64,000 bases of DNA from Elusimicrobiota bacterium (GTDB taxonomy: Bacteria > Elusimicrobiota > Elusimicrobia > UBA1565), in the NCBI GenBank assembly GCA_043819795.1, contig JBDREN010000049.1, positions 2,379 through 66,378 on the forward strand, in the 5' to 3' direction. The number at the start of each line of letters is the position of its first letter. The first letter of the stretch is position 1. Below, in pieces: positions 18,828 through 64,000 of the stretch. The position numbers were made by a program, and so were the translations under genes. Below the pieces are notes generated by a model. It was not told the origin of the DNA. It searched no databases and saw only the letters and a program-made list of their open reading frames with translations.

Positions 18828-18830
18828 GCG

Positions 18831-47005: not shown

Positions 47006-47177
47006 CGTTGAAGCGGCCCGCTCGTAATGGGAAGGCCGTTCCCAAGCGAATCCGCGAGAGAGTGAGCGTCCTGGCCGGGTCGCCGCGTCTGTGTCTCCCC
47101 GGAAGGAACGAATGAATGCGTAGGCCGCGGGGCGAGCTTGCGGCGCTGGAAAGAATCCGCCGGTGTTGAACGCCGGT

Positions 47178-47220
47178 CCGCACGGCTGGGGATAGATCGG
47201 GAAAGTCCCCAGCCGTGCGG
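47178..47220. other. Perfect 15-bp stem hairpin (CCGCACGGCTGGGGA / TCCCCAGCCGTGCGG, 13-nt loop)
   Basis: Arms at 47178-47192 and 47206-47220 are exact reverse complements, followed by TGCTTTG. Possible weak terminator of the SBP transcript or a structured RNA element. Confidence 0.6.
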
Positions 47221-47470
47221 TGCTTTGAGGCCTGCCCGAGTATCCTAGCCCGAATTCCCCGTCTGGATCGCTGGATTCGACGCAAGATGCCGGGACTTTT
47301 CTGTGCGAAATGTCTCGACCGCACGGTTTCCTGACAGGGAGTGGAAGCGGCATTTCCTCGTGGTGACGCTTGGTCATGCCGCAGCGGGTACGCTCTCCAA
47401 ATTCCGCGTTGAACTGGCCTCGGCCTCTTGCATCTCGGTCCCACGCGCCCAACTGGGGAATCCGGGCCAG

Positions 47471-47771
47471 GTGTAGTGAACCATAAATCCCTTGACATTC
47501 GGGCGATCGATTTCGGCCTCCGGCTAGGCGCGGGGAGCGCGCATGCCCGCAGGTATGTAAGCGACGAGCAACGACGCCGGAAGCCAAAAGCGCCCGCCCC
47601 CTCCTCCTTGACGCGGACAGCGGCGAAATTCTATGGAAAGGGGAGGCCCGATCCCGGCCGATTCCCACGTTGCTCCTCGGTTGCATAGCTTAAGCCATGC
47701 GCCCTCATCGCGCCTCGAAATCGACTCGGGCTCGGGCCTCCAAATGACAAGGGATTTATGATTCACTACAC
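47471..47771. mobile_element. MITE-like non-autonomous element (~300 bp) bounded by 29-bp terminal inverted repeats
   Basis: GTGTAGTGAACCATAAATCCCTTGACATT (47471-47499) versus the reverse complement of 47743-47771 (GTGTAGTGAATCATAAATCCCTTGTCATT) matches at 27/29. Imperfect complementarity continues inward (CGATCGATTTCGG / CGAAATCGACTCG). No ORF inside. Confidence 0.45.
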
Positions 47772-47941
47772 TAGCGATGGCCACTTACTGATTCGGATGG
47801 GGCAAATCCTTTCTATAGCGCAGTATTGTTAAATATGAAACATGTGGCGCTGCTAAACGTTGCAAAAGAGAAACTAGAAGCAGTTTGGAGGCATTCTGAA
47901 CTGGTCAAAAAGAACGAAAAAAACGCAACTATTGGTGGCTA

Positions 47942-47970
47942 TTGCAAAATGGAACGATATCTGCTATAAT
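47942..47970 (+). promoter_or_regulatory. Promoter of the PAS/AAA+ regulator gene (sigma-70 TTGCAA-17-TATAAT, overlapping a sigma-54-like GG-N10-GC element)
   Basis: TTGCAA 47942-47947, 17-nt spacer, TATAAT 47965-47970 with TG at 47962-47963. Also TGGAACGATATCTGCT (47950-47965). RBS GGGAG lies 7 nt before ATG 48011. Confidence 0.5.
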
Positions 47971-48010
47971 AGAACCATAGCATACGTTTCCAGCCGCCGG
48001 GAGTTGATAT

Positions 48011-49369
48011 ATGCAGTTTGAAGGCCAAGGTCGTTTTTTCGAGACCATCCTCCGTTGTGTCGCTGACGGCGTGTTCACGGTGGACCGCGACTGGCGTATC
48101 ACCTCCTTCAATAAGGCGGCCGAGCGCATCACGGGCATGAGCGCCCGGCAGGCCATGGGCAAGAGATGCTCCGAAGTCTTTCACGCGGACCTCTGCGGTG
48201 ACGGCTGCGCCATCAGGCGGGCTCTCGAGACCAAACGCGAGGTCATCGAGCAGCCGGCCAATATCCGCGACCAGCGCGGCAGGGCGATCCCGATAAGCAT
48301 CAGCGCGGCCGTGCTTCGGGGGGAGGACGGGACCGTCCTCGGCGGGGTCGAGACGTTCCGCGACCTGTCGGCCATCGAGCAGCTCAGGCGCGAGATCCGG
48401 AGCCAGTACACCTTCGAGGAGATCGTCGGCAAGAGCGAGGCTTTCCAGAAGGTGTTCTCCATCCTGCCGGACGTCGCCGCCAGCGAGAGCACGGTCCTCA
48501 TCGAAGGCCCGAGCGGCTCCGGCAAACAGCTCCTGGCGCGGACCATACACAACCTGAGCCCCCGCCGGGATCGGCCTTACGTCGTGGCGAACTGCGGGAT
48601 GATGCCGTCCGGCCGCTGCGCGTCCGAGCTTTTCGGCCACGTGCGAGGCGCCTTCAAGGACGCCAAGGGGGACCGGCTCGGCCGCATCGCGCAGGCCGAA
48701 GGGGGGACCATCTTCCTGGACGAGATCGGCGACCTGTCGATGGAGAGCCAGGTCAGGCTCCTCAAGGTCCTTCGGGACGGAGAATACGAGCCGCTGGGCG
48801 GCGTCAGTCCCCGGCGCGCCGATGTGCGCGTGGTCGCTGCCACGAGCAAGAGCCTGCCGGATCTGGTCGGGCGGGGGCTTTTCCGCGACGATCTCTACTT
48901 CCGCCTGGCGGTGGTGCGGCTGAGCATACCGCCCCTGTCCGAGCGGCGCGAGGACATCCCCTGCCTGGTCGAGCACTTCGTCCAGCGCTTCAACGCCAAG
49001 CGCGGCAAGAGCATCCAGGGGGTGACGCCCGCGGCCATGGAGCTTCTCATGCGCCATGGTTTTCCCGGGAACGTGCGCGAGCTGGAGAACCTGATCGAAT
49101 GCGGCTTCGCTCTATGCCACGGCGGATGGATGGACGTCGGCCATCTGCCCGAGGATCTGAGGCCGTCGCGGCGGCCGGGCGCCGCCGGGCGCCGCCTCGA
49201 GGGCGCGTCCCTGCTCCGGCACATCGAGGCGGACGCGGTCCGCGCCTCCTTGGGGCGGAACGCGGGCCATCTCGGCCGCACGGCCGAGGAGCTGGGCATC
49301 AGCCGGACCACGTTGTGGCGCAAGATGAACAAGTACGCCATCGAAGCGGACGAGTTCCGGGCCGGTTGA
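48011..49369 (+). CDS. PAS-domain AAA+ enhancer-binding-protein-type transcriptional regulator (NtrC family, no receiver domain; GAFTGA replaced by GAFKDA)
   Basis: N-terminal PAS (ILRCVADGVFTVDRDWRITSFNKAAERITG), Walker A GPSGSGKQ, ELFGHVRGAFKDA, GGTIFLDEIGDL, RVVAAT, FRDDLYFRL, GNVRELEN, C-terminal Fis-type HTH GISRTTLWRKMNKY. Confidence 0.9.
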   Translation: MQFEGQGRFFETILRCVADGVFTVDRDWRITSFNKAAERITGMSARQAMGKRCSEVFHADLCGDGCAIRRALETKREVIEQPANIRDQRGRAIPISISAAVLRGEDGTVLGGVETFRDLSAIEQLRREIRSQYTFEEIVGKSEAFQKVFSILPDVAASESTVLIEGPSGSGKQLLARTIHNLSPRRDRPYVVANCGMMPSGRCASELFGHVRGAFKDAKGDRLGRIAQAEGGTIFLDEIGDLSMESQVRLLKVLRDGEYEPLGGVSPRRADVRVVAATSKSLPDLVGRGLFRDDLYFRLAVVRLSIPPLSERREDIPCLVEHFVQRFNAKRGKSIQGVTPAAMELLMRHGFPGNVRELENLIECGFALCHGGWMDVGHLPEDLRPSRRPGAAGRRLEGASLLRHIEADAVRASLGRNAGHLGRTAEELGISRTTLWRKMNKYAIEADEFRAG

Positions 49370-49388
49370 CCCGGGGGGAGAGAACGCG

Positions 49389-50762
49389 GTGAGCACCCAA
49401 AGGAAATACAGCTACTTCGTCGAGCCCAAGGCGCTCGAGGTCGCGGAGCGTCCGCGAAAATTCCTCATGGCATTCGCGGCCGTGCTGAAGAACGCCAGCT
49501 ACGGGCTGGCGCTCGATACGTACGCGCGCCTGAGCACCAAATGCGGGCGTTGCGTGGCCTCCTGTCAGCTCTATCAGACCACGCGCGAGGAGCGGGACAT
49601 CCCCTGCCATCGCTCCGAGCTCCTGCTGCGGGTGTACCGGCGGTACTTCACGCATTCGGGCCGCCTCAAGGCCAAGATATTCAGCGGTTTCGAGTTGACG
49701 GACGCCTACTTGGACGAGATGGGCGAGGCCTACTACCGCTGCACCGCCTGCCGGCGGTGCAAGGCCACCTGCCCCATGGGCATCGACCACGCCCTGGTCA
49801 CTCATCTGGCCCGGTGGCTGCTCTCGGAGATCGACGTCATCCCCAAGGCGCTGTTGGTGGCGACGCGCGAGCAGCTCGAGGGCGTCGGCAATACCTCGGC
49901 CATCCCGGTCCCCGCGCTCAAGGACACCTGCGAGTTTCTGGAGGAGGAGCTCAAGGAGATCACCGGCGTGGACATCAAGTTCCCCATGGATGTCGAGGGC
50001 GCCGAGTACGTCTTCTTCCCGGCGGTCTCGGACTATCTGCTCGAGGCGGACACCCTCATGGGCAACGCGGCCGTCATGCACGTCACCGGCGGGTCGTGGA
50101 CCATCGGCACGGGCAACTACGACGGCATCAACTACGGCCTGTTCTACAGCGATCGCATGATGGAGCGGATCGTCAACAACGTCGTCAAGGAGGTCCGCCG
50201 CCTCAAGGGGAGGAAGGTCCTCGTCGGCGAATGCGGCCACGCCACTCGCAGCGCCTGGTACGTGCCGGCCTTCGGCGGCCCGGACGCGCCGCCGGTGGTC
50301 AATTGCTTGCAGTACGCCCACCGGATGCTCGAGGCCGGGAAGCTCCCCCTGAAGAAAGAGCTTATCAAGGAGCGGGTCACCTATCACGATCCGTGCAATA
50401 TCGCCAGGAGCGGGCGGATCACCGAGGAGCCTCGGGAGCTCCTTAAGGCTATCTGCGGGGACTTCGTGGAGATGACGCCGAACCGCGCGGAGAACTACTG
50501 CTGCGGCGGAGGCGGCGGCACGGTCTCCATCGACGAGATCCGGGCTTTCCGCACGGGTCTCATGGGAAAGCGCAAGGCGGATCAGATCCGCGCGACCGGC
50601 GCCAAATACGTCGTGTCGCCCTGCGCCAACTGCAAGAAACAGCTCCGCGAGGTCTGCGAGGACAACGGCCTCAACGAGGTCGAGGTCGTGGGCCTGCACG
50701 ACCTGCTGCTGAAGGCGATCGACTTCGGGGTCCCCGAGAAGAAAGGAGAGGACGATGGGTGA
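49389..50762 (+). CDS. HdrD/DsrK/HmcF-like iron-sulfur protein (2x 4Fe-4S + CCG domain), cytoplasmic
   Basis: CGRCVASCQLY and CTACRRCKATCPMGIDH ferredoxin motifs. CCG-domain signatures YHDPCNIARS and NYCCGGGGG. Confidence 0.85.
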   Translation: MSTQRKYSYFVEPKALEVAERPRKFLMAFAAVLKNASYGLALDTYARLSTKCGRCVASCQLYQTTREERDIPCHRSELLLRVYRRYFTHSGRLKAKIFSGFELTDAYLDEMGEAYYRCTACRRCKATCPMGIDHALVTHLARWLLSEIDVIPKALLVATREQLEGVGNTSAIPVPALKDTCEFLEEELKEITGVDIKFPMDVEGAEYVFFPAVSDYLLEADTLMGNAAVMHVTGGSWTIGTGNYDGINYGLFYSDRMMERIVNNVVKEVRRLKGRKVLVGECGHATRSAWYVPAFGGPDAPPVVNCLQYAHRMLEAGKLPLKKELIKERVTYHDPCNIARSGRITEEPRELLKAICGDFVEMTPNRAENYCCGGGGGTVSIDEIRAFRTGLMGKRKADQIRATGAKYVVSPCANCKKQLREVCEDNGLNEVEVVGLHDLLLKAIDFGVPEKKGEDDG

Positions 50763-51465
50763 GCTAGAGATCTGGACCGAGTGGGCGCGCGGGCCGCTGT
50801 TCAGGGCCGCGCTGGCGTTCATGATCCTGGGCCTTCTGCGTCACGCGGCGTTGACCATATGGGAGCTGGCGGGGATCATGTACCGCGCCGGCGACAAGGC
50901 CTTCCCGTGGAGGCGGGCATTCTCCGCCACGCTAAAATGGCTTTTCCCGGTGGGGCAGATCAAGAACCGTGTCCTCTACAGCCTGACCACGCTCGGCTTC
51001 CATGCCGCCGTCATCATCGTTCCCGTTTTTCTCGCGGGCCACGTCGCGCTCTGGGAGCGGGGCACGGGCCTGTGCTGGCCGACCATCCCCAACGGCGTGG
51101 CGGACGTGCTGACGATCATGGCCGTGCTCGCGGCGGCCTTGCTCGTGGCGGAGCGCGCGGCCGCGCGGGACTCCCGGGCGCTGAGCCGCTTCCAGGACTA
51201 CGCCTTGCCCCTGCTCGTGGCCGCGCCCTTCGCGACCGGCTTCCTGGTCATGCATCCGGCTTTAAACCCGTTCGGCCATGAAGCGACGATTCTGGTCCAC
51301 GTGTTGAGCGCGGATATTCTGTTCATCCTCATCCCGCTGACCAAGCTGAGCCACATGATCCTGCTCCCGGGCACGCAGATCATCTCCGAGCTGTCCTGGC
51401 ATTTCCCGCCGGACGCCGGCAGGAAAGTGGGCGTCGATCTCGGGAAGGAGAAGCAACCCATATGA
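50755..51465 (+). CDS. NarI/DsrM/HmcE-like membrane cytochrome b subunit
   Basis: 8-nt overlap with the upstream gene. About 5 TM helices with conserved His (LLRHAAL, GFHAAVIIVP, GHVALWE, HVLSADILF, KLSHMILLP). Confidence 0.7.
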   Translation: MGELEIWTEWARGPLFRAALAFMILGLLRHAALTIWELAGIMYRAGDKAFPWRRAFSATLKWLFPVGQIKNRVLYSLTTLGFHAAVIIVPVFLAGHVALWERGTGLCWPTIPNGVADVLTIMAVLAAALLVAERAAARDSRALSRFQDYALPLLVAAPFATGFLVMHPALNPFGHEATILVHVLSADILFILIPLTKLSHMILLPGTQIISELSWHFPPDAGRKVGVDLGKEKQPI

Positions 51466-52595
51466 AGAAGCCCGTCGCCATCCTTACGGACACGACGCTC
51501 TGCACCGGCTGCGAGGAATGCGTCGCGGCGTGCAAGAAGGAGAACGGCCTGGGCGAGGATCGCCGGTGGCGCTGGCAAAGCTCCGTGAGCGAGCTTTCCG
51601 CGTCGCGCTTCACCGCAATCATCCGTCGGCCCGGCAACCGCTACGTCCGCCAGCAGTGCCGGCACTGCGTGGACCCGGCGTGCGTGAGCGCCTGCATCGT
51701 GGGCGCGCTGCGGAAGACGGAAGAAGGCGCGGTGGTCTACGACCAGGATAAGTGCATCGGCTGCCGTTACTGCATGCTGGCCTGCCCCTACGGGATCCCG
51801 CGCTACGATTGGGAGAAGCCGATCCCGTACATCAGGAAGTGCACGCTCTGCTATGACAGGCTTGAGGAGGGAAAGGCCCCCGCCTGCGTGGAGGCCTGCC
51901 CCGAGAAGGCGACGATATTCGGCTCCCGCTCCGATATGCTGGCCGAGGCCCATCGGCGCCTGAAACGGCATCCCGGGAAGTACGTCCAGAAGGTCTACGG
52001 GGAACGCGAGGTGGGGGGGACGTCGGTCCTCTACATCTCGGACATACCCCTTGATTTCCTCGGCTGGCAGACCGATCCCGGCGAGCGGCCGCTGCCGGAC
52101 CTCACGTGGGCCGCCCAAAGGAAGATCCCGGCCGCGGCTCTGGGGGTGTTCGGGCTCATGGGCGGCACCTACTGGGTCATCGGCCGGAGGATGCAGGCCG
52201 CGGCGCGGGCGGGCCTGAAAGACGCGCCCCGGGAAGGGGACGCCCCGTCCGTGGGGCACGGGCATCCGGAGCAGGGAGGGGCCCTCTCCGGCCTGAAGAC
52301 GGCCCTGTGGATGCCTCTCGGCGTGGTGGCGGCCGTGACCATCGTGCGTTTCGCGCGGAATCTGGACGCGGCCGCGAGCCTCGGGGACGGAGCCCTCTGG
52401 ACCCTGTGGCTCGCCCTCGGCGTGGCGGGAGGCACCGGTCTCGGGGCGGGGATCCATTGGCTCGCCGCCCGCCGCAAGAAGGCGCCGGAGGAGGACGCGG
52501 AGCCCGAGGAAGGAACTCCCACCCCGCCCGTCCAGGCGTCGAAGACTTCCGTTCCCAAGCAGATCGCGGGCGACGGCGGCCCGAAGGAGCGATAG
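51462..52595 (+). CDS. Four-cluster 4Fe-4S ferredoxin subunit (HybA/HmcB/DsrO/NrfC-like) with C-terminal TM helices and no signal peptide
   Basis: ATGA overlap. CTGCEECVAAC, CRHCVDPACVSAC, CIGCRYCMLACP, CTLCYDR..CVEACP. The first Cys is residue 14 (MKKPVAILTDTTLC). Three hydrophobic segments lie after residue ~215. Confidence 0.85.
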   Translation: MKKPVAILTDTTLCTGCEECVAACKKENGLGEDRRWRWQSSVSELSASRFTAIIRRPGNRYVRQQCRHCVDPACVSACIVGALRKTEEGAVVYDQDKCIGCRYCMLACPYGIPRYDWEKPIPYIRKCTLCYDRLEEGKAPACVEACPEKATIFGSRSDMLAEAHRRLKRHPGKYVQKVYGEREVGGTSVLYISDIPLDFLGWQTDPGERPLPDLTWAAQRKIPAAALGVFGLMGGTYWVIGRRMQAAARAGLKDAPREGDAPSVGHGHPEQGGALSGLKTALWMPLGVVAAVTIVRFARNLDAAASLGDGALWTLWLALGVAGGTGLGAGIHWLAARRKKAPEEDAEPEEGTPTPPVQASKTSVPKQIAGDGGPKER

Positions 52596-52599
52596 GGCG

Positions 52600-54561: not shown

Positions 54562-54565
54562 AACC

Positions 54566-55681
54566 ATGGCCCCCAAAGAGATAGAAAGCTGGCTTCGATC
54601 GAGCCTCTTTAACGAGGTCCCGGTGAGCATCTGCGTGATCGACCGGGGTTTCCGGATCATCGAGGCGAACCGGAGGTTCAGGGAGGAATACGGCCCCTGG
54701 AAGGACCGGGCGTGCCACGAGGTCTGCAAGGGTCTGGAGGAGCCCTGCGAGCGTTGCGGCGCGGTCAAGACCTTCTCGGACGGGCGCGTGCGCAACCGGG
54801 AGGAGACGGGAGCGGGCGGGAAGCACTACCTGGTGCACATGGTCCCCATCACCACCGACGGCGGGGATATCTCCTACGTCATCGAGACGTTCACGGATAT
54901 CACGCAGGTGAAGCAGCTGGAGGGCGAGAAGCGCGAAGCCGAGCGTCTGGCCGCCGTCGGCGAGACCGTGGCCGGCATCGCCCACGGCATGAAGAACGTG
55001 CTTACCGGGCTCGAAGGCGGCGTCTATGCCGTCAATACGGGCATCCAGCATGGCGACGACGAGAGGATCACCGAAGGCTGGGCCATGCTCGAGGAGAATA
55101 TCGCGCGCATCTCGGAGTTTGTCAAGGAGTTCCTGGCTTTCTCCAAGGGGCGCATCGCGCGGGTGGCCTTCGTGGACCCCAACGCCCCGGCGCGGGCGGT
55201 CTTTGAGCTCTTCCGGGAGAAGGCCGCGCAGGCGGGCATCGAGCTGAAGGCGGACCTGCAAGAGGGGATTCCTCCCGCGCCCCTGGACGAGCAGGGGATC
55301 CACGCCTGCCTGGCCAACCTCGTATCGAACGCCCTGGACGCCTGCTCCATGGGCGAGCAGCGGCGCGCGTGCGTGGTGACGATTCGCTCCCGGGAGCGCA
55401 GCGGGACGCTAGTGTACGAGGTTGCGGACAACGGCCGCGGGATGGACTACGAGATCAGTAGGAAAGTGTTTTCGAGGTTCTTCAGCACGAAGGGCTCGGA
55501 CCGGGGCACGGGTCTGGGGCTGCTCACCACTAAGAAGACCATCCACCAGCACGGCGGCCGGGTCTCGTTCAGCTCCGAGGAGAGCAGGGGCTCGGTGTTC
55601 CGCATCGAGCTTCCCCGGGAAAGACTGCCCAAGCCGGGCGGGAAGCCCGCCCAACGACAGGCCGCGGAAGGAGACGCCTGA
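54566..55681 (+). CDS. Cytoplasmic PAS sensor histidine kinase
   Basis: ATG 54566 (MAPKEIESWL..). PAS with a four-Cys cluster, H-box LAAVGETVAGIAHGMKNVL, N/G boxes LVSNALDA, DNGRGM, GTGLGL. Confidence 0.85.
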   Translation: MAPKEIESWLRSSLFNEVPVSICVIDRGFRIIEANRRFREEYGPWKDRACHEVCKGLEEPCERCGAVKTFSDGRVRNREETGAGGKHYLVHMVPITTDGGDISYVIETFTDITQVKQLEGEKREAERLAAVGETVAGIAHGMKNVLTGLEGGVYAVNTGIQHGDDERITEGWAMLEENIARISEFVKEFLAFSKGRIARVAFVDPNAPARAVFELFREKAAQAGIELKADLQEGIPPAPLDEQGIHACLANLVSNALDACSMGEQRRACVVTIRSRERSGTLVYEVADNGRGMDYEISRKVFSRFFSTKGSDRGTGLGLLTTKKTIHQHGGRVSFSSEESRGSVFRIELPRERLPKPGGKPAQRQAAEGDA

Positions 55682-56229
55682 TGGACAAAGAGAACGCCAA
55701 AGGACGCGCCGAGGATAAGACCGTACTCGTGGTCGATGACGAGCCGAACGTGCGCCGCCACCTGGCCCACATCCTAGAGGACGCCGGCTTCAAGGTCCTT
55801 ACGGCCTCCGATGGGGATGAGGCCCTGAAGACCATCCGGGAGCGGCGCCCGGACATCATCTCGCTCGACCTGGTCATGCCGCGCAAGAGCGGGCGCCGGC
55901 TGCTCTACGAGCTGAAGAAGGATAAGGAGCTCTCCCGCATCCCGGTGGTCATCGTCACCGCGCACGCCCAGGACGAGCTGGGCCAGAGCGACATGGAAGC
56001 CATCAGGGAGAGCATGATCATATCGGGCCCGGGCTTCTATCTGGAGAAGCCGGTTAGGCCCATGGACTACGTGCGCTGCATCCAGGAAGCCCTGGGCATC
56101 GAAGTGGCGGATCAAGCCGCGGACAAAGTCAGCCTCAAGGACGAGCTGAAGCGGCAGATGCAGGGGGCGGAGCCGCACGCGCTGCGCCGCGCCCTCGAGG
56201 CGTTGAGAAAGAAAGGCCCGCCGCGCTAG
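55681..56229 (+). CDS. Response regulator, receiver domain with short C-terminal extension (no recognised output domain)
   Basis: TGATG overlap with the kinase gene. VLVVDDEPNVR..DIISLDLVMPRKSG..VVIVTAH..LEKP. Confidence 0.85.
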   Translation: MDKENAKGRAEDKTVLVVDDEPNVRRHLAHILEDAGFKVLTASDGDEALKTIRERRPDIISLDLVMPRKSGRRLLYELKKDKELSRIPVVIVTAHAQDELGQSDMEAIRESMIISGPGFYLEKPVRPMDYVRCIQEALGIEVADQAADKVSLKDELKRQMQGAEPHALRRALEALRKKGPPR

Positions 56230-56248
56230 AGGGCCGAGGAGACCTGCG

Positions 56249-56602
56249 ATGGCGAAGAAGATCCTGATCGTCGAAGACGAGCCGCACGTCGTGAAGTATC
56301 TCGAGATGTTCCTCCACGACGCGGGCTTCCAGACGGTATCCGCGAGCGACGGTCAGACGGGTCTGGAGCTGGCCAAGCGCGAGAAGCCGGACCTGGTGAT
56401 CCTGGACCTTATGATGCCGAAGAAGACGGGGACGGACTTCTACCGGAAGCTCTCCAGGGACAAGGAGCTCGGCGATACCCCCGTCATCGTGGTCAGCGGT
56501 CTGGCCGGCCGAGATCTCGTCGTCAGGAAGCCTGCGGCGGTGTTCGACAAGCCCCCGGACCGCGAGGGGCTCATCGCCGCCATCAAGAAAGCCCTCCCGT
56601 AG
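56249..56602 (+). CDS. Single-domain response regulator (receiver only)
   Basis: KILIVEDEPHV..DLVILDLMMPKKTG..VIVVSG..FDKP. Confidence 0.85.
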   Translation: MAKKILIVEDEPHVVKYLEMFLHDAGFQTVSASDGQTGLELAKREKPDLVILDLMMPKKTGTDFYRKLSRDKELGDTPVIVVSGLAGRDLVVRKPAAVFDKPPDREGLIAAIKKALP

Positions 56603-56651
56603 AGCCCCGGCTTCTGGAGCTTGCCCGGAGCAGGTATCCGGGCGACCGCCC

Positions 56652-56676
56652 CGGCAGGAACGTTGCGTGCTATAAT
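56652..56676 (+). promoter_or_regulatory. Promoter of the hydrogenase operon: sigma-54-like -24/-12 (GG-N10-GC) overlapping an extended -10 TGCTATAAT
   Basis: CGGCAGGAACGTTGCG (56652-56667) and AGGAACGTTGCGTGCT (56656-56671) both fit GG-N10-GC. TGCTATAAT at 56668-56676. 33 nt upstream of ATG 56709. Confidence 0.45.
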
Positions 56677-56708
56677 CCTGTGAGAACGCGGCGCCGGGGG
56701 GAAGTCCG

Positions 56709-57752
56709 ATGCTGTACAAGGTGATCACGAAGGCCGAGTTTCGGAAGTTCGTCGACGGCCTGATCCAGGACAACCAGACTATAGGCCCCAAGCGGGTCGC
56801 CACGGACGCGAAAGGCAAGCCCGTCTACCAGTTTGTCGAGGTCCGCTCCTTCGACGAGTTGGACCTCGACTACACGATCACCTACTCCTCGGTGAAGAAT
56901 TTCTTCCACCCCTTCCGCGAGGAGCTGTCTCGTTTCAAGCTGAAAGATGACGATTGGGAGCAGGAGATCGAATACCGCGTCAATCCGAGGGTCATCATCG
57001 GCGTGCGGCCGTGCGACATCAACGCCTTGGCGATCCTGGACAAGGTGTTCTTGAGCGGGAGATTCCCCTCGCCGTACTACATCGCCCGGCGCCGGAACAC
57101 CTTCCTGATCGGAATGGACCATCTGCCCCTGGATGACTGCTTCTGCGAGTCCCTGAACCGGCACGCCCCGCGCGAGGGGTTCAACCTCTACTGCTCGGAC
57201 ATCGGGGACAGATACTATCTCTCGATCCTTTCCTCAAAGGCCTTCAGCTTCCTCAAGAACGTGAGGACGAGCGAGCCCTCCAAGGCGGACAACAAAAGAT
57301 ACATCGAGAGAAGAAAGCTCATCAAACGGAGCTTCAAGACCAAGGTGGAGGTCTCGGGCCTGCCGAGCTTCCTGGACATCGAGTTCAAGTCCCCGATATG
57401 GGATAAATGGGGGGACAAGTGCCTGAACTGCGGGACATGCGCCATGGTCTGCCCCACGTGCTACTGCTACGGGGTGGAGCAGTCCGTGGACGTGGACCTG
57501 AAGACCGCCCGCAAGGAGCGCATGCTGTACTCCTGCAACGTCGTGGATTTCGCGGAGGTGGCCGGAGGGCACAACTTCAGGCCGAAGAAGGCGGACAGGC
57601 TGAAGTACCGGTTCTATCACCATTACAGGGGTTTCGAGGAGAACGCCGACGAGCAGATCTGCGTTGGCTGCAACCGGTGCGGCAGGGCCTGCCTGGCGGG
57701 GATCAACCCGAAGGACGTGATCAACGACTTGAGGCTGGAGACCGGAGAATGA
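56709..57752 (+). CDS. [NiFe] hydrogenase group 3b-type beta subunit (AsrA/HydB-like Fe-S protein)
   Basis: [37 protein letters not shown]. First gene of the beta-gamma-delta-alpha order known from sulfhydrogenases. Confidence 0.8.
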
Positions 57753-58663
57753 AGGCGGGATTCAAAATACCCAGGCAGGACATCAATCTCGAGCCGTTCA
57801 TGACGGCGCCTCCCCAGTTCAACCGCAAGACCATCGTCATGCGCACGGACAAGGTCTACAAGTGCGAGCTCATCAACATCGTCGAGCTGACCTCCATGGA
57901 GAAGCTCTTCCATCTCAAGATCATCGACCCCCGCGAGAGGAAGCTGTTCTCCTTCCGGCCGGGACAGTTCGTGATGGTCCAGGTGCCCGGCTCCGGGGAG
58001 GTCCCGGTCTCCATATCGAGCTCGAGCAACAACCGGGAGTTCCTGGAGCTGTGCGTCCGCAGGGCGGGGCGCACCACCGGCATGCTGCACCGGGCCCGGA
58101 TCGGCGCGAAGGTGGGGATCCGCGGGCCCTTCGGCTCGTCTTTCCCCATGGAGGAGATGGCTGGCCACAACGTCCTGCTGATCGCCGGAGGGCTCGGCCT
58201 GGCCCCCCTGCGCGCCCCCATCTGCTGGGTCAACGAGCGCCGGGACCAGTACGGCGACGTCCACATCCTCTACGGCGCCAAAGAGCCTTCCCAGATGCTC
58301 TTCACGTACGAATTCAAGGAATGGGAACGGGTGAACCACATCAATCTGCTGACCATCGTCGAGAAGGCGGACAAGGCCTGGAAGGGCGGGACGGGCCTCA
58401 TCACCGAGCTCTTCAGGGATTTCTCCATCAAGCCGCTCGACACCTACGCGATCGTGTGCGGGCCGCCCGTCATGTTCAAGTTCGTGTGCGGGCATCTGGA
58501 CTCCATCGGGGTTCCCATGAACCGCATGTTCGTCTCCCTGGAGCGGCGGATGCACTGCGGCATGGGCAAGTGCTGCCGGTGCATGGTGGGCTCGACGTTC
58601 ACCTGCGTGGAAGGCCCCGTGTTCGACTACTGGAGCGTCATGAATTTGAAGGAGGCGATTTGA
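57749..58663 (+). CDS. [NiFe] hydrogenase group 3b-type gamma subunit (FAD/NAD(P)-binding, 2Fe-2S; AsrB/HydG-like)
   Basis: ATGA overlap (57749-57752). [36 protein letters not shown]-terminal [10 protein letters not shown] cluster. Confidence 0.85.
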
Positions 58664-59415
58664 GATACCTCGGCATCGAGCTCAAGAAGCCCAGGATCGC
58701 CGTCTTCGACTTCACCTGCTGCGAGGGCTGCGAGCTGCAGCTGGCGAACAAGGAGGAGACCCTGGTCGATTTCCTCTCCCTTGTCGAGGTCGTGAACTTC
58801 CGGGAGGTGTCCTCGGACAAGAGCGAGGACTACGAGATCGCCTTCGTGGAGGGGGCGGTCTCGAGGGAGGATGAGGTCGCTCGCCTGAAGAAGATCAGGG
58901 TGAACGCGAAGGTCCTCGTGGCTTTCGGCGCCTGCGCCTGCTTCGGCGGCGTGAACCAGATCAAGAACAAGTTCCCGCTCAAGTCGGTCGTCCGAGAGGT
59001 GTACGGCAGGCACCGCGTGGCCACGTCCAAGGTGCGGAAGATCAGCGAAGTGGTCAAAGTGGATCTCGAGATCCCGGGCTGTCCGGTCTCCAAGAAAGAG
59101 GTGGAAAGGATCGTCGTCGCTCTGGTCACGGGCGCGGGCATCAGCCTGCCGAAGTACCCCGTCTGCCTCGAGTGCAAGGCGAAGTGCAACGTCTGCGTCC
59201 TGGACCTCGGGCAGATCTGCCTGGGTCCGATCACGCGCGCGGGCTGCGATTCGCCCTGCCCATCCGGGGGGACCGCGTGCCTGGGCTGCAGGGGGCCGGC
59301 GCCCGAGGCCAATTACGAGTCGTTCCTGCGGATATTGAAAGACCGGGGCTTCAAGGCCCCGGAGATCAAGGAGAGGCTCGAGTTCTACGGCGCCTTCAAC
59401 GGGGTCATGAGATGA
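58660..59415 (+). CDS. [NiFe] hydrogenase small (delta) subunit, group 3 type
   Basis: TTG 58660 overlaps the gamma stop, with GAAGGAGG upstream. [28 protein letters not shown], and distal cluster cysteines [12 protein letters not shown]. Confidence 0.85.
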
Positions 59416-60686
59416 AGCGCGCCAGGGAGATCACCGTACGCCATGTGACCCGGGTCGAGGGCCACGGCGACATCCATATCAAGGTGAAAGACGGCCGGCT
59501 CGTGGATGCGCGGTGGGCCGTGGTGGAGACCCCGCGTTTCTTCGAGGCCATGCTCAAGGGCATGTCCCATGATCTGGCGCCCATACTGACGGCCAGGATC
59601 TGCGGCATCTGCTCCATAGGCCACTGCCTGGCGAGCCTGAGGGCGGTGGAGAGGGCCATGGACGTCAAGGTCCCGGAGACCGCGCGGCTGTTGCGCCTGC
59701 TCGCCAAGCACGGCGAGACCCTTCAGAGCCACGCGCTCCACGTGTTCTTCCTGTCCGCGCCCGATCTCTTCAAGGTGGGGAGCGTCATCCCCCTGATCAA
59801 GTCCCATCCCGAGGTCGTCGGCATCGCGGCCAGGCTCAAGAAGCTGGGAAACGACGCTTGCGACCTGATCGCGGGGCGGACCACGCACCCGGTGAGCCTG
59901 GTGGTGGGCGGGCTCAGCAGGCTGCCCACGGACAAGCAGATCGAGGAGCTGAGGGGCGCGTTCCTTGCGAGGCTGCCGGACATGCGCGCGGCCGTCGACC
60001 TCTTCAAGACGCTTCCCATGCCGGACTTCCAGCGGGAGACGGAGTTCGTGTCATTGAAGGGCCAGGGGGACTATCCCTGGATCGGGGGGGATCTCGTGTC
60101 GTCCGACGGCGTCCGCAGGCCGGAGGACGGCTACCTGGCCATGACGAACGAATACAAAGTGGAGTTCAGCACCTCGAAGTTCGCCAAGCTGAGTAGGGAG
60201 TCCTTCGCGGTCGGCGCCCTGGCGAGGTTCAACAACAATCACAAGCATCTGCGGCCGGAGGCGAAGGGAGCCGCCAAGGCGCTGGGCTTGAGTCCCCTGA
60301 GCCACAACCCTTTCATGAACAACGTGGCCCAGCTCGTGGAATGCTATCACGTGATGCTGGAGTCCATCGAGTTGCTGGACGGGCTTCTGGGCCGCCGGGG
60401 AAAGACCGCGTCCCGTCCTTATAAAGTGAAGGCCGGCCGGGGCGTCGCCGCCGTGGAGGTGCCCCGGGGCATCCTCTACCACGAATACGAGCTCGACAAG
60501 AAGGGCAAGGTCGTCAGGGCGAACTGCGTCATCCCCACCACGCAGAACCACGCCAACATCCACCACGATCTCCGGGCGCTCGCCGCGCGGCTGGTGCGGG
60601 AAGGCAAAAGCGACGGGGAGATCACTTTGCTGAGCGAGATGCTGGTCCGGTCCTACGACCCCTGCATCTCCTGCTCCGTCCACTAG
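59412..60686 (+). CDS. [NiFe] hydrogenase large (alpha) subunit, group 3b type, ending at the C-terminal His
   Basis: ATGA overlap. VTRVEGHG, L1 motif [11 protein letters not shown]-terminal DPCISCSVH followed directly by TAG (60684-60686). Confidence 0.9.
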
Positions 60687-61591
60687 AGCAGATCTTTCGC
60701 CTCGGGGAAGCTCGTCTGGGTGCCGGACGAGCGCACGCTGAGGGCGGCCACGCGGTTGGCCCGCCGTACCGCTTCGGGCAGCGCCGTGCCGGAGGCCAGG
60801 AAGAAGGCCAGGCTGCCCACGAACGCGTCCCCGGCTCCGGTCGTGTCGACGGCCTTCACGGGCTCGACGGGCACGTGCTCGGCGCCGCCGCCGGCGACTA
60901 GCAGGCTGCCCCGCTCTCCCAGGGTCAGGATCACCGTCCCCGCTCCGCGCTCCACGAGGACGCGCGCCGCGGCCTCGGCCTCCTTTGGGGTCCCCACCGG
61001 CATGCCGGTCAGGAGCTCGGTCTCGCTCTCGTTGGGGCAGAAGACGTCGCTCAGCCGGTAGAGCTCCTCCGGCAGGTCCGGACGGGCCGGCGCCGGATTG
61101 AAGATGGTCCTTACTCCTTCCTGGCGGGCGATGCGCAGGGCGGCCAAGGAGACCTCCAGGGGGATCTCCAGCTGGCAGACCAGTATCCGGGCGGCGGCGA
61201 TCGACCGGCGCCCGGCCTCGATCTCACCCTCGGTCAGCAGATCGTTGGCTCCGGTCACGATGATGATGGAGTTGCGCCCTTCCGGGTCCACGGCGATCGG
61301 GGCCACTCCCGAGAACGCCCGGTCGGTGAGATGCACATGCCGGGTGTCCACTCCCAGGGACTCGAAGTTCTTCAAGGTGTCCTTGCCGAAGACGTCGTCT
61401 CCCAGCTTGGCCACCATGGCGACGTCGCCTCCCAGTTTGGCGGCCATGACCGCCTGGTTGGCGCCCTTGCCCCCGAATCCCATGTGGAAGCGGGTCCCAT
61501 GCAGAGTCTCGCCCACGCGGGGCAGCCTCGGCACGTAACTGATCAGATCGAGATTGCATGCCCCCACGACGCAGATCTTCGGTCTATCCAT
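60683..61591 (-). CDS. rbsK: Ribokinase
   Basis: GGKGANQAV, NESE, DTTGAGDAFVGSL. GGAGGA lies 6 nt before ATG 61591. Confidence 0.9.
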   Translation of the reverse strand: MDRPKICVVGACNLDLISYVPRLPRVGETLHGTRFHMGFGGKGANQAVMAAKLGGDVAMVAKLGDDVFGKDTLKNFESLGVDTRHVHLTDRAFSGVAPIAVDPEGRNSIIIVTGANDLLTEGEIEAGRRSIAAARILVCQLEIPLEVSLAALRIARQEGVRTIFNPAPARPDLPEELYRLSDVFCPNESETELLTGMPVGTPKEAEAAARVLVERGAGTVILTLGERGSLLVAGGGAEHVPVEPVKAVDTTGAGDAFVGSLAFFLASGTALPEAVRRANRVAALSVRSSGTQTSFPEAKDLL

Positions 61592-61637
61592 GTGGCTTCC
61601 TCCTGAGCGTGCGGCCGGCCAGCTCGTAGATGGTATG

Positions 61638-61681
61638 AAAAAAAGCGGGCGGCGGACCCGGGCCCGAGTCCCGCCGGAAGC
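61638..61681 (-). terminator. Terminator-like GC hairpin + U7 in the 5' leader of rbsK (minus strand)
   Basis: Minus-strand RNA reads CUUCCGGCGGGACUCGGGCCCGGGUCCGCCGCCCGC-UUUUUUU. The A7 run on the plus strand is 61638-61644. It lies 47 nt upstream of the rbsK start codon. Confidence 0.4.
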
Positions 61682-61706
61682 ATCCTACATGTGTTCGGTC
61701 AGGTTA

Positions 61707-61735
61707 TTGATTTGGGAGTACAGTTAAGCTATACT
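61707..61735 (+). promoter_or_regulatory. Putative sigma-70 promoter of the MerR-family gene
   Basis: TTGATT (61707-61712), 17-nt spacer, TATACT (61730-61735) in an AT-rich island. The palindrome CTATATAG overlaps the -10 region. Confidence 0.4.
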
Positions 61736-61756
61736 ATATAGAGTAGCTTTGTAATA

Positions 61757-62272
61757 ATGGTAGACCCTGCAAAGGCTTTTACCGAACCTGTGATTGCGAT
61801 CGGGACGCTGGCTGAGAAGAGCGGCCTTTCCGTATCCGCGATCCGGAAGTACGAGGCGGAGGGCCTGCTCATTCCCTTTCGGACGCCTTCCGGCCATCGC
61901 CTGTTTTCTCACGAGGACATGGACCGGGTGAAGATCATCCGCCACATGATCCAGGAGCTGGGCCTGAACATCGAGGGCATCAGGAGGCTGCAGGCGCTGC
62001 TTCCGTGCTGGGAGCTGGTCCGGTGCTCGGAGGATAAGCGAAGCGAGTGCCCGGCCTACAAAGACAACTCCAAGCCGTGCTGGATGGTCCGGGGAGGGGA
62101 CTGCAGCGCGCGCGGGAACGAATGCCGCAGCTGCGCGGTGTACCGGTTCGGCTCGCAGTGCACCGAGGACATCAAGCGCGTGGTGCACAACCGGGCGGCT
62201 CCGGAGGAGCTGAGCGAGGAAGTGCGGAAGGCTTTGAACAGGCTGGAACAACCTGAGAAGGGGGATAGATGA
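61757..62272 (+). CDS. MerR family transcriptional regulator with C-terminal cysteine-rich (2x PCW) domain
   Basis: MerR HTH IGTLAEKSGLSVSAIRKYEAEGLL..RTPSGHRLFS, then LLPCWELVRCSEDKRSECPAYKDNSKPCWMVRGGDCSARGNECRSCAVYRFGSQC. Confidence 0.85.
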   Translation: MVDPAKAFTEPVIAIGTLAEKSGLSVSAIRKYEAEGLLIPFRTPSGHRLFSHEDMDRVKIIRHMIQELGLNIEGIRRLQALLPCWELVRCSEDKRSECPAYKDNSKPCWMVRGGDCSARGNECRSCAVYRFGSQCTEDIKRVVHNRAAPEELSEEVRKALNRLEQPEKGDR

Positions 62273-63156
62273 TAGTCATACTCACCTATGTCGCGTTGAT
62301 CGTGTTCGGGGCGGGATTCCTTTATAGAGGCTTAAGCATCGCGATGATGCCGGTGCATCTGCGATGGGAGCTCGCGCCCGTGCCGCACGAAAAAGGAAGA
62401 GCCCATTACGGGGGGTCTTACCTGGAGGAGTTCGAGTGGTGGACCAAGCCCAGGGAGAAGTCGCTTGTGGGCGAAGCCTTCTACATGTTCCAGGAGATCG
62501 TCTTCCTCAAGGGAGTCTGGGAGCACAACCGCTCTTTGTGGGTGTTCTCCTTCCCGTTCCATTTCGGTTTGTACCTGCTCGTCGGCATGGGGGGGTGCCT
62601 CATCCTGGCGTCTTTCGGCGTCCCATTCTTCGGCCCGGCGGCTTTGGCCCTCGGAGGAGCGGGCTACGTGCTGGGCAGCGTCGGGACCTTGGGGCTCCTT
62701 GCCAGGCGCGCCTTCGACCCCAAGCTCAAGCCCTTCACCAGCATGGCGTCGTATTTCAACCTCCTGTTCCTGGCGGCGGTGTTCGTGACCGGCTGCGTCG
62801 CGTTGTTCTCGGGGGGCTTTCTGGCGGACATGACCTCCTACCTCAAGGCCGTCGCCTTCGCCGAGGCGGGGCCGGCGCTGGGCGCCGCGATCTCGACGCA
62901 CATCGCCGTGGGGATGCTCTTCCTCGTCTACCTGCCGTTCACCTACATGATGCATTTCGTGGCCAAGTACTTCACCTACCACGAAGTGCGGTGGAACGGC
63001 GAGCCCATGTCGGGCAATGACGCCATGCAGGAAGAGGTCAAGAAGCTGCTCGGGCAGACCGTGACGTGGTCCGCTCCACACATCGGCGCCGACGGCAAGA
63101 AGAACTGGGTCGATATCGCCACCGCGGGGACAGCCAAGGAGAAAAAAGATGCCTAA
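62269..63156 (+). CDS. DsrM/HmeC/NarI-like membrane cytochrome b subunit
   Basis: ATGA overlap with the MerR gene. MPVHLRWELAPVPHEKG, FQEIVFLKGVWEHNRSLWVFSFPFHFGLYLL, YMMHFVAKYFTYH. Confidence 0.75.
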   Translation: MIVILTYVALIVFGAGFLYRGLSIAMMPVHLRWELAPVPHEKGRAHYGGSYLEEFEWWTKPREKSLVGEAFYMFQEIVFLKGVWEHNRSLWVFSFPFHFGLYLLVGMGGCLILASFGVPFFGPAALALGGAGYVLGSVGTLGLLARRAFDPKLKPFTSMASYFNLLFLAAVFVTGCVALFSGGFLADMTSYLKAVAFAEAGPALGAAISTHIAVGMLFLVYLPFTYMMHFVAKYFTYHEVRWNGEPMSGNDAMQEEVKKLLGQTVTWSAPHIGADGKKNWVDIATAGTAKEKKDA

Positions 63157-64000
63157 GCCCCTGAGAGTCGAGGATTTCGGGAAGAACGAAGGGCAGCAGC
63201 TGACCAGCGTCGACATGAGCGACCTGGTCCCCCTGCCGCCCCCTTACGACAAGATCGAGGAGCAGCCGGTATGGAAGGAGATCAAGCCGGAGGCGAAGGA
63301 GAAGATGGCCTGCAACCTCGACGGGGTGGTCGCCTGCAGCCTGCCCAAGCCCAAGGACGCCGCCGAGGAGCAGGAGATCGTCGACAAGTTCGTCTCGGGC
63401 CTTAGGAAAATCCTGACGAAAGAGAACAATTGGACCTTCCTCCAGCCGCTTATGCTGTCTTTGGAGTACTGCGCCAAGTGCCAGACCTGCAACGACGCCT
63501 GCCCGGTCTACGAATTCAGCGGCAAGAACGACCTCTACCGGCCCACTTACCGTTCCGAGGTGTGGCGGCGCCTGGTCAACAAGTACGTCAAGTCCGGCCC
63601 CAAGTGGCTGGCGAAGTTCAAGCACGGGGATATCGACCTTAACTGGACGACGGTCTCGAGGCTCTACGAGCTTGCCTACCGCTGCACCTTGTGCCGCCGC
63701 TGCGCGCAGGCCTGCCCCATGGGAGTCGACAACGGGCTCATCACCCACGAGCTGCGCAAGATCTTCAGCCAGGAGCTGGGCTGGGCCCCGAAGGAGCTCC
63801 ATGAGAAGGGCACCGTGCTGCAGCTCGATGTCGGCTCCTCGACGGGCATGAGCCCCCTGGTGGTCAAGGACAACATCGAGTTCGTGGACGAGGACTTCTC
63901 CGAGGAGTCCGGCCTGGACGCCAAGACTCCGTGGGACAAGGAGGGCGCGGAGGTCCTGCTCATCCATAACGCGGGCGAGATCATGACCTGGCCGGAGAAC
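63149..64000 (+). CDS. DsrK/HdrD/HmeD-like iron-sulfur protein, 3' end beyond window
   Basis: Not in the ORF track because no stop is reached. I translated it by hand: ATG 63149 after AAGGAG, open to nt 64000. EYCAKCQTCNDACPVY and YRCTLCRRCAQACPMGVDN. Confidence 0.8.
   Translation, partial: MPKPLRVEDFGKNEGQQLTSVDMSDLVPLPPPYDKIEEQPVWKEIKPEAKEKMACNLDGVVACSLPKPKDAAEEQEIVDKFVSGLRKILTKENNWTFLQPLMLSLEYCAKCQTCNDACPVYEFSGKNDLYRPTYRSEVWRRLVNKYVKSGPKWLAKFKHGDIDLNWTTVSRLYELAYRCTLCRRCAQACPMGVDNGLITHELRKIFSQELGWAPKELHEKGTVLQLDVGSSTGMSPLVVKDNIEFVDEDFSEESGLDAKTPWDKEGAEVLLIHNAGEIMTWPEN

Follow-up and report, generated by a model that had tools for sequence, protein, structure and literature searches.

The stretch under study comprises positions 48011-64000 of a 64-kb window (the whole stretch of DNA analysed, about 66% GC) from a bacterium of the Elusimicrobiota (contig JBDREN010000049.1), and contains 16 genes, for each of which one coding frame was picked out by the GC content of third codon positions (GC3). 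The protein numbers MFH1723724.1 (gene G5) and MFH1723734.1 (gene G15) are ten apart, in agreement with this gene count. A preliminary description, made from the letters alone, had taken the stretch for one integrated island of H2-linked and thiol-disulfide electron transfer. Every gene that it listed is present on a GC3-supported frame, and its list omitted a ribokinase gene on the minus strand. The 16 kb consist of four adjacent units, namely a cassette for a putative transmembrane redox complex with its regulators (unit A), a hydrogenase operon (unit B), the ribokinase gene (unit C) and a MerR/NarI-like/DsrK-like unit (unit D); they are not one co-inherited island, because no cassette locus tested elsewhere yielded hydrogenase, ribokinase or MerR. 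The features are as follows.

47951-47970, plus strand: promoter motif 1, GGAACGATATCTGCTATAAT, ending 40 nt upstream of the G1 start codon
48011-56602, plus strand: unit A, cassette of eight genes, G1-G8
48011-49369, plus strand: G1, activator with PAS, Sigma54_activat (AAA+ domain, 190 bits) and HTH_8 (Fis-type helix-turn-helix, HTH) domains
49389-50762, plus strand: G2, cytoplasmic HdrD/DsrK/HmcF-like protein with two ferredoxin-type 4Fe-4S motifs and one complete CCG site
50755-51465, plus strand: G3, five-helix membrane protein of the TmcC/HmcE (NarI-type) kind, without a Pfam match
51462-52595, plus strand: G4, Fer4_11 protein, HmcB/HybA/FdnH-like, with 16 cysteines (four clusters) and a C-terminal membrane helix
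52600-54561, plus strand: G5, fusion of an NrfD domain (residues 33-319) and a Cytochrom_CIII/C7 domain with six CXXCH motifs (residues 497-622)
54566-55681, plus strand: G6, soluble PAS histidine kinase with the PAS cysteine cluster CHEVC-x6-CERC
55681-56229, plus strand: G7, receiver-only response regulator with a C-terminal tail of about 60 residues
56249-56602, plus strand: G8, receiver-only response regulator
56657-56676, plus strand: promoter motif 2, GGAACGTTGCGTGCTATAAT, ending 32 nt upstream of the hydrogenase beta gene
56709-60686, plus strand: unit B, [NiFe] hydrogenase operon of four overlapping genes, assigned by Pfam and NCBIfam architecture
56709-57752, plus strand: hydrogenase beta subunit
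57749-58663, plus strand: hydrogenase gamma subunit (FAD/NAD-binding)
58660-59415, plus strand: hydrogenase delta subunit (small subunit)
59412-60686, plus strand: hydrogenase alpha subunit (large subunit)
60683-61591, minus strand: unit C, ribokinase (TIGR02152, 352 bits against a cut-off of 299.65)
61757-62272, plus strand: G14, MerR_1 HTH protein (58.6 bits) with a cysteine-rich C-terminal domain
62269-63156, plus strand: G15, NarI-type membrane protein, DsrM-like in role, with 2172 homologues
63149-64000, plus strand: G16, DsrK-like CCG iron-sulfur protein, cut by the window end

The electron-transfer subunits of unit A, G2-G5, were compared with NCBIfam models, with solved structures by sequence search, and with their orthologues. 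In G2, the CCG site is formed by C336, C371, C372, C412 and C415 (CCG domain E = 2.8e-16), and the cysteines of the pattern CX(n)CCGX(n)CXXC are kept in 98-100% of 64 orthologues; the best model is DsrK (274 bits, cut-off 400), followed by TmcB (203, cut-off 735) and HmcF (200, cut-off 750), with far lower scores for GlpC, LdhH and TfrB, and the solved structures yielded one distant match only. G3, with helices placed from hydropathy, scored 126 bits with TmcC (cut-off 240) and 117 bits with HmcE (cut-off 275). Its histidines H83, H96, H182 and H200 are kept in 90-100% of 70 orthologues, and these four would be enough to bind two haems b. All 16 cysteines of G4 are kept at 99-100% among orthologues; the protein scored 246 bits with HmcB (cut-off 420; aligned from profile position 36), 209 with HybA (cut-off 263) and 120 with DsrO (cut-off 200), and its closest solved relative is FdnH.

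G5 consists of a ten-helix part resembling NrfD, HmcC and HybB, an eleventh helix (residues 396-414), a small beta region and a six-haem c3/c7-like domain, in which all six CXXCH motifs and several extra histidines are invariant in 28 homologues. NCBIfam scores were 224 bits with HmcC (cut-off 550), 222 with HybB (cut-off 450), 28 with DsrP (cut-off 350) and 26 with HmcA (cut-off 400). In the hydropathy-based topology, odd loops carry 18 lysines and arginines and even loops 5; the N-terminus is therefore predicted to lie inside and the cytochrome domain outside, in the periplasm. An AlphaFold2 model with a mean predicted local distance difference test score of 67, good in the membrane part and poor in the haem part, matched ActC of alternative complex III with its membrane domain, and the sequence search of solved structures gave no match for G5. 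Every electron-transfer subunit lies below the Hmc, Tmc and Dsr cut-offs of NCBIfam. The preliminary description had been unable to equate the system with a described one, and this stands: the cassette matches no curated NCBIfam family, sources use generic names for its genes, and no description of it was found in the literature searched.

In the Elusimicrobiota versions only, G4 has a C-terminal extension with extra hydrophobic segments (351-377 amino acids, as against about 255-285 elsewhere). Its residues 275-340 or thereabouts (52284-52481) resemble the first two helices of the adjacent NrfD subunit; this likeness points to the beginning of G5 having been copied in part to the end of G4.

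For the distribution of the cassette, one genome per species was scanned, and at least 581 species-level genomes were found to encode a relative of the fusion protein. Homologues of G5 number in the thousands, and each of the best 120 is a fusion of 627-698 amino acids, 119 of them with precomputed NrfD and cytochrome c3 matches and one with the cytochrome match only. We fetched 80 loci, all from metagenome-assembled genomes and from more than ten phyla (Latescibacterota, Gemmatimonadota, Planctomycetota, Acidobacteriota, Zixibacteria, Ignavibacteria/Kapabacteria, Bacteroidota, Thermodesulfobacteriota, Hyphomicrobiales and others). Synteny was counted over 83 sources (82 distinct loci and the window) by tblastn with the 16 window proteins and, separately, by clustering of all open reading frames (ORFs). 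G4 was present in 76 of the 83, G3 in 74, G2 in 65, the receivers in 50, the kinase in 48 and the activator in 41, with fixed offsets from G5 of -2.9 kb for G2, -1.5 kb for G3 and -0.8 kb for G4. The gene tables of three distant loci give the same order, namely activator, optional small ORF, CCG protein, b-type protein, cluster protein, fusion, kinase, receiver and receiver. A coherent system with dedicated regulation, as had been supposed for the whole stretch, is thus found for G1-G8, whose gene order recurs across phyla. None of the 83 loci tested yielded a hydrogenase, a ribokinase or a MerR protein. The closest cassette, with a G5 identity of 69%, is that of another Elusimicrobiota genome (L084), and a related one lies on an unclassified metagenome contig (L085); gene tables and tblastn showed no hydrogenase in either, and ribokinase and MerR are likewise missing beside these two cassettes.

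Eight Planctomycetota loci (L014, L015, L017, L020, L022-L024 and L027) hold a variant core without the CCG subunit or regulators and with a weak b-type match. In seven of them, all but L020, a cytochrome of 863 amino acids with many CXXCH motifs directly follows the core; the same fusion of NrfD and cytochrome may here have been built into a conduit that passes electrons outward.

The regulators of unit A are marked by cysteines in their PAS domains, and these motifs of activator and kinase recur in relatives. In G1, the motif C-x8-C-x3-C consists of C52, C61 and C65; the spacing is matched in 20 of 41 orthologues, with near variants in eight more, and comparison of the PAS domain with solved structures gave generic PAS matches only, without a clue to a cofactor. 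The kinase G6 has four cysteines, and a three-cysteine form was read by eye in two kinases of a Gemmatimonadota locus (L009). In enhancer-binding proteins such as PspF and NtrC, the threonine of the GAFTGA loop contacts sigma54. At the position where GAFTGA is expected, G1 has GAFKDA (ELFGHVRGAFKDA), which replaces this threonine; 37 of the 41 orthologues have GAFTDA and one has GAFTGA, and GAFKDA occurs in the window only. The operon's own regulators, that is the Cys-PAS activator, the Cys-PAS kinase and the two receivers, probably sense redox state or reactive sulfur.

The 20-nt sequence GGAACG-N5-TGCTATAAT occurs exactly twice in 64 kb, upstream of G1 and upstream of the hydrogenase, so that the shared promoter motif of the preliminary description is real. 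TGnTATAAT was found in the 64 kb only at these two sites, with 0.05 occurrences expected, and the relaxed pattern GG[AC]AC-N6-TGC[AT] likewise has only two matches. The motif can be read equally well as an extended -10 promoter of sigma70 (TGCTATAAT, with TTGCAA 17 nt upstream) or as a sigma54-type GG-N10-GC element. The canonical sigma54 consensus has 14 matches in the window against 16.9 expected, the two motif-bearing promoters share no word of 8 nt or more beyond the motif, and the motif is absent from the sister loci L084-L087; an orp-like operon in L085 starts with GGCACG-N5-TGCTAT. We consider it plausible that cassette and hydrogenase are co-regulated in this genome, as a lineage-specific trait. 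Of 64 loci of relatives, 17 have a sigma54-like -24/-12 site before the core (matching in 9 or more of 11 positions), where about 2.4 would be expected by our own estimate. The gap between the activator gene and the CCG gene measures 200-1400 nt in relatives (about 3.1 kb in the outlier L056) and only 20 nt in the window, where no such sigma54-like site precedes the core.

In 28 loci, a small PF02579 ORF (NifX/orange-protein-like, as the C-terminal part of MrpORP), in a form of 132 or 274 amino acids, lies between the activator gene and the CCG gene; these loci include L001, L002, L006, L008, L009 and some of L044-L080. Whole orp-like clusters (CbiA/ParA-FeS ATPases, DUF364 and several PF02579 genes) lie upstream in L084 and L085. 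A search of the window found neither a small PF02579 ORF nor DsrC, and the window has lost this ORF.

Genes of dissimilatory sulfur metabolism (dsr, apr or sat) were found within 10 kb of the cassette core in 13 of the 80 loci, in several phyla, compared with a chance rate of about 1% by our own rough estimate, even if every genome carried those genes. In L047 the order is dsrC, a DsrT-like gene, dsrMKJOP, G2-G5 and sat, and the Dsr proteins directly upstream of the core are genuine (DsrM 504 bits, cut-off 300; DsrK 730, cut-off 400; DsrP 425, cut-off 350). ORF clustering placed DsrM, DsrK and DsrP upstream of the core in loci that lack the regulators. A DsrC family, likewise obtained by ORF clustering, ends in CKVAGLPKPTGCV, and its representative in L062 scored 126 bits in TIGR03342 (cut-off 53.5). 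In Gemmatimonadales, aprA, aprB and rex on one strand are followed by a pair of NarI-like and DsrK-like genes, the activator and the cassette, with an AprB of 183 bits (cut-off 136). The lineages that carry the cassette match those that published surveys reported to hold dsr genes. DsrAB has been noted in Elusimicrobia, with one assembly in which DsrK was not found (PMC10504309); this observation fits paralogues such as these standing in for DsrK and does not show it.

In the window itself, tblastn over the 64 kb found no Apr, Sat or Dsr protein, and to this extent the earlier statement that no terminal reductase is present was borne out. The preliminary description had further left the cytoplasmic disulfide carrier as 'unidentified'; for this carrier and for the missing terminal reductase, the loci elsewhere supply an obvious candidate context, with the core following dsrC, a dsrT-like gene and dsrMKJOP, or lying near aprBA or sat, in the 13 of 80 loci. 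It had also held that the island would fall if its modules belonged to separate pathways found elsewhere, and this is in part the case, given the sulfur-gene contexts of the cassette and of the MerR unit. Near the cassette of L003 lies a gene for a Pyr_redox_2 and rhodanese protein (2614-4974; persulfide-reductase-like) with DUF4405, and near that of L001 one for an HdrA-like flavoprotein with a FlpD/MvhD domain (15326-18883). These neighbours hint at sulfur or heterodisulfide chemistry.

Unit D begins with the regulator G14, whose tail has seven cysteines that are invariant in the alignment (C84, C90, C98, C108, C116, C123 and C126). It lies below the cut-off of every MerR subfamily model (MerR, CueR, SoxR and ZntR), and the tail is a distinct seven-cysteine domain. 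The NarI-type protein G15 has no match to the DsrM equivalog model. Full-length orthologues of G16 have 533-551 amino acids, and those of Gemmatimonadota score 323-336 bits with DsrK (cut-off 400). An assignment of G15-G16 as genuine DsrMK was rejected on account of the DsrK scores below cut-off and the missing DsrM match.

Two sister Elusimicrobiota loci, L086 and L087, contain the unit with identities to the window of 61-70% for MerR, 64-68% for G15 and 83-84% for G16. The order in L086 is SulP, aprB, aprA, a small ORF, a CxxCxxCC protein, MerR (171 amino acids), the NarI-like and the DsrK-like protein (533 amino acids), then two receivers, a PAS kinase, a receiver, a second MerR, an unknown protein and a canonical Hmc operon. 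L087 begins with Hmc, after which come receivers together with a kinase, then MerR and the pair. A Fic-domain gene and a gene of Cys/Met metabolism (PF01053) separate the pair from the CxxCxxCC protein, aprA, aprB and sat, which lie about 5-10 kb downstream on the opposite strand. The kinases beside the pair in both loci are paralogues of G6 (43-46% identical). The seven-cysteine MerR precedes the pair in all three Elusimicrobiota copies examined (window, L086 and L087) and was confirmed in this phylum only; in Gemmatimonadota the pair adjoins an excisionase-type HTH regulator with a similar PCWE...CxxCxVYR motif. No hydrogenase lies beside the MerR-pair unit in L086 or L087. As regards the proposed link between two HdrD-type modules, 7 Gemmatimonadota loci indeed have the NarI-like/DsrK-like pair next to the cassette. 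In the sister Elusimicrobiota the pair is flanked by kinases and receivers paralogous to those of the cassette, and in L086 a second copy of the cysteine-rich MerR precedes the canonical Hmc operon. By these comparisons unit D is a predicted HdrED/DsrMK-type module, conserved and separately regulated, whose recurrent partner is the gene set for reduction of adenosine 5'-phosphosulfate (APS); because of its neighbours in relatives, it would be tied to the sat/aprBA step.

The hydrogenase of unit B is an ordinary bacterial enzyme of group 3b, cytoplasmic and independently NAD(P)-linked, and its four subunits match sulfhydrogenase models. Its alpha subunit aligns end to end with the alpha subunit of the solved sulfhydrogenase I of Pyrococcus/Thermococcus (221 bits) and has the nickel-site motifs, including DPCISCSVH; no signal peptides were seen in the subunits. 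The alpha subunit ends at the histidine of DPCISCSVH (60660-60686), without a C-terminal extension for a maturation protease, and the annotated ORFs of the 64 kb include no hyp or protease genes. If the hydrogenase and unit A are co-regulated, this may hold for the present genome alone, the shared promoter motif being the sole tie between the two. The ribokinase gene, convergent with the hydrogenase operon and standing between it and the MerR unit, belongs to no redox module.

In the rest of the window, about 27 ORFs scanned with Pfam belong to housekeeping families only, and a few were left unscanned, including one of 1314 amino acids (32269-36213). Directly upstream of the stretch, positions 41706-47005 encode a hybrid PAS histidine kinase/receiver of 1324 amino acids (BarA/TorS-like) and a sugar-type ABC substrate-binding protein; these genes are not kept beside the cassette elsewhere and are seemingly unrelated to it. 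A perfect 15-nt hairpin, terminator-like, lies downstream of the substrate-binding-protein gene (47178-47220). The non-coding stretch of 1 kb before G1 (47006-48010) contains, directly upstream of the cassette promoter, a 301-bp element that resembles a miniature inverted-repeat transposable element (47471-47771; a 32-nt inverted repeat, 91% complementary, around 237 nt), present in one copy in the window and without an Rfam match; an Rfam scan of this 1 kb found nothing credible. An ordinary MerR_2-type regulator adjoining a DnaJ gene on the minus strand (10335-11805), in an HspR-like arrangement, is unrelated to G14.

The position of G4 relative to the membrane was considered separately. HmcB, HybA and DsrO carry a signal for twin-arginine translocation (Tat), and FdnH is exported by riding on its Tat partner FdnG. 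G4 has no N-terminal signal peptide, and no upstream start could supply one. About 75 orthologues start some 8-28 residues (most 10-13) before the first cysteine motif, which is too few for a signal peptide in any of them, and the charge bias of their tail helix puts the cluster domain outside; the canonical HmcB of L084 has a twin-arginine-like leader, MRISRKKFLG.... Across the 80 loci, the cassette and its flanks have no conserved protein with a Tat signal. G4 is either exported with a partner encoded elsewhere or assembled differently. According to a published survey, signal-less HybA-like proteins ride on a Tat-signal [FeFe] hydrogenase (PMC10924467).

From domain content, cofactor ligands, predicted topology, synteny and neighbourhoods, we propose a model for the electron path, its direction, the substrate and the sensed signal. 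Unit A would be a single operon for an unnamed transmembrane redox complex of the Hmc/DsrMKJOP class, in which a periplasmic six-haem domain is fused to NrfD by a helix standing where the HmcD gene sits in canonical operons. The six-haem domain would exchange electrons with the four-cluster subunit G4 and with the quinone site of NrfD, the di-haem b subunit G3 would carry electrons across the membrane, and the CCG site of G2 would reduce, or in reverse oxidise, a protein-bound disulfide or trisulfide, most likely of the DsrC type. Expression would be set by the in-operon regulators, comprising the Cys-PAS enhancer-binding protein, the Cys-PAS kinase and the two single-domain receivers. Unit D would be a separate two-subunit module between quinol and cytoplasmic thiol-disulfide with its own seven-cysteine MerR. 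The likeliest role of the cassette would be Hmc-type electron transfer to a cytoplasmic DsrC-type sulfur carrier, in the service of dissimilatory sulfur metabolism. We hold it to be on balance probable that the stretch comprises four units, with A encoding an unnamed paralogue of the Hmc/DsrMKJOP class that most likely serves a carrier of the DsrC type, D separate, and B independently NAD(P)-linked. A further proposal is made tentatively: G1-G8 could constitute another, unnamed HdrD-linked class beside Dsr, Hmc, Tmc and Qmo, with three-part sulfur/redox sensing, acting as an auxiliary or alternative oxidoreductase of DsrC (or a related carrier) in non-classical sulfate, sulfite and sulfur metabolisers of at least ten mostly uncultured phyla, its iron-sulfur subunit reaching the periplasm without a signal of its own.

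Several points weigh against this model. About 83% of the loci have no sulfur gene within 10 kb, and this 64-kb window has no dsr, apr, sat or dsrC gene. Because the Planctomycetota variant has no CCG subunit, the core of NrfD-cytochrome, iron-sulfur and b-type proteins can work without a cytoplasmic thiol site. The predicted periplasmic placement of G4, which the model needs, is unexplained given the missing signal in about 75 orthologues. The GAFKDA loop and the 20-nt gap before G2 may mean that the inherited regulation has been rewired in this genome.

The single island of the preliminary description, with the group 3b hydrogenase supplying or consuming H2/NAD(P)H reductant for both HdrD-type complexes under common regulation, was not borne out and is distinctly unlikely. 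In its favour, the genes lie side by side with a common orientation, the 20-nt motif is confined in the 64 kb to the promoters of G1 and the hydrogenase, and the solved relatives of the hydrogenase are sulfhydrogenases; yet the hydrogenase occurs in none of the 83 loci and is absent from L084, L085, L086 and L087, the convergent ribokinase gene interrupts the series before the MerR unit, and no subunit links NAD(P)H to the membrane complexes. A general module between quinol and periplasmic cytochrome (or the cell exterior), unrelated to sulfur and with a CCG site for another thiol or metabolite, as in proteins of the GlpC, LldF and TfrB type, is rather unlikely. It would account for the majority of loci without nearby sulfur genes and for the Planctomycetota variant, in which a large multihaem cytochrome follows the CCG-less core in 7 of 8 cases; CCG domains also occur in enzymes of glycerol-3-phosphate, lactate and fumarate, and in Methanoperedens clusters of NrfD, iron-sulfur, b-type and multihaem proteins have been linked to electrode respiration (PMC10874420). 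It sits poorly with G2, which matches DsrK best (274 bits) and GlpC, LdhH and TfrB far less well, and with the location of the core, repeatedly at the end of dsrMKJOP operons and next to sat or aprBA.

The signal-less G4 raises another alternative, in which the cassette supplies the membrane and cytoplasmic coupling for a periplasmic enzyme that is encoded elsewhere and exported by Tat (for instance a hydrogenase, formate dehydrogenase or molybdoenzyme), with G4 hitchhiking on it as FdnH does on FdnG. This would explain why about 75 orthologues lack a signal while their tail-helix charges put the clusters outside, and it agrees with FdnH as the best solved relative of G4, with scores of G4 and G5 for HybA/HybB nearly as good as those for HmcB/HmcC, and with the [FeFe] hydrogenase precedent (PMC10924467). 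No Tat-signal protein is, however, conserved in or beside the cassette in the 80 loci, and the fused cytochrome already gives a periplasmic entry point, so that we regard this alternative as quite improbable; as to the destination of the electrons, it is compatible with the DsrC-type model that we prefer.

Dissimilatory sulfur genes have been reported in many uncultured phyla, for which the coupling between quinones, periplasm and sulfur carrier is largely extrapolated from Desulfovibrio. As a conserved, self-regulated operon, with at least 581 genomes holding a relative of the fusion, and attached to dsrMKJOP, sat or aprBA in several phyla, the cassette is a testable candidate for the missing or alternative coupling site. 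The current labels of such genes, 'hydrogenase cytochrome b subunit' and 'nitrate reductase gamma subunit', are misleading. A HybA/FdnH-type protein that has lost its signal peptide in every orthologue examined, in all of the sampled phyla, and must still assemble on the outer face of the membrane also poses a clean question of cell biology.

Among known systems, the hydrogenase of unit B resembles group 3b enzymes (HydBGDA/ShyBCDA) in its four subunits in beta-gamma-delta-alpha order and in a gamma subunit with FAD- and NAD-binding domains; it differs in being bacterial and well below the archaeal equivalog cut-offs. The activator G1 shares with FisR the combination of a sigma54-type activator with cysteines in the regulatory domain, a likeness that serves as a lead only; G1 senses through a PAS domain that contains C-x8-C-x3-C, and it has an altered GAFTGA loop. 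The cysteines of Cupriavidus FisR are reported, in work cited in PMC7315123, to contribute to sulfide-dependent expression. The pair G15-G16 of unit D corresponds to the minimal pairing of NarI-type and CCG proteins in systems of the Tmc, DsrMK and HmeCD type, and is set apart from these by the seven-cysteine MerR and by neighbours that are aprBA (with sat in one locus) and not dsrAB. The cassette was also considered as a membrane module of hydrogenase-2; this was rejected, as no HybO/HybC-type gene occurs in the tabulated loci or among the recurrent neighbour families.

With the Hmc complex of Desulfovibrio (HmcABCDEF), the cassette shares a multihaem cytochrome c, a tail-anchored four-cluster protein, a ten-helix NrfD protein, a NarI-type di-haem b protein and a cytoplasmic CCG protein, and G4 and G5 score best with HmcB and HmcC. 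G5 is ten-helix NrfD-like as HmcC is, with ten predicted helices and an ActC-like fold, its 224 bits lying below the HmcC cut-off. HmcD has no separate gene in the cassette; the extra helix 396-414 occupies its place in the C-D-A order and is not matched by PF28260. A canonical hmcE-F-B-C-D-A operon, with the 43-amino-acid DVU_0533/HmcD peptide, comes after the cassette in L084, and its gene order C-D-A equals the domain order of NrfD, extra helix and cytochrome in G5. Because the window proteins are only 31-40% identical to the Hmc proteins of L084 (G2 31% to F, G3 31% to E, G4 40% to B and G5 38% to C), the cassette is a paralogue that coexists with Hmc. It differs from Hmc in its cytochrome (six haems, fused to NrfD through an extra helix, whereas HmcA has sixteen haems and is separate), in the four-cluster subunit, which lacks the Tat signal of HmcB, in an operon that includes a sigma54 activator, a kinase and two receivers, in scores that are far below the Hmc cut-offs for all subunits, and in its occurrence mostly outside the classical sulfate reducers.

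DsrMKJOP comprises the same set of modules, with the CCG protein K, the di-haem b protein M, the cluster protein O, the NrfD protein P and the c-type cytochrome J; G2 matches DsrK best, and the core directly follows genuine dsrMKJOP in several phyla. In contrast to DsrMKJOP, the cassette has a G3 that matches HmcE/TmcC and not DsrM, scores below the cut-offs of DsrK, DsrO and DsrP, and a six-haem cytochrome of the c3/c7 type where DsrJ has three haems. Since the cassette coexists with genuine DsrMKJOP, those genomes hold it as a paralogue and have not replaced DsrMKJOP by it.

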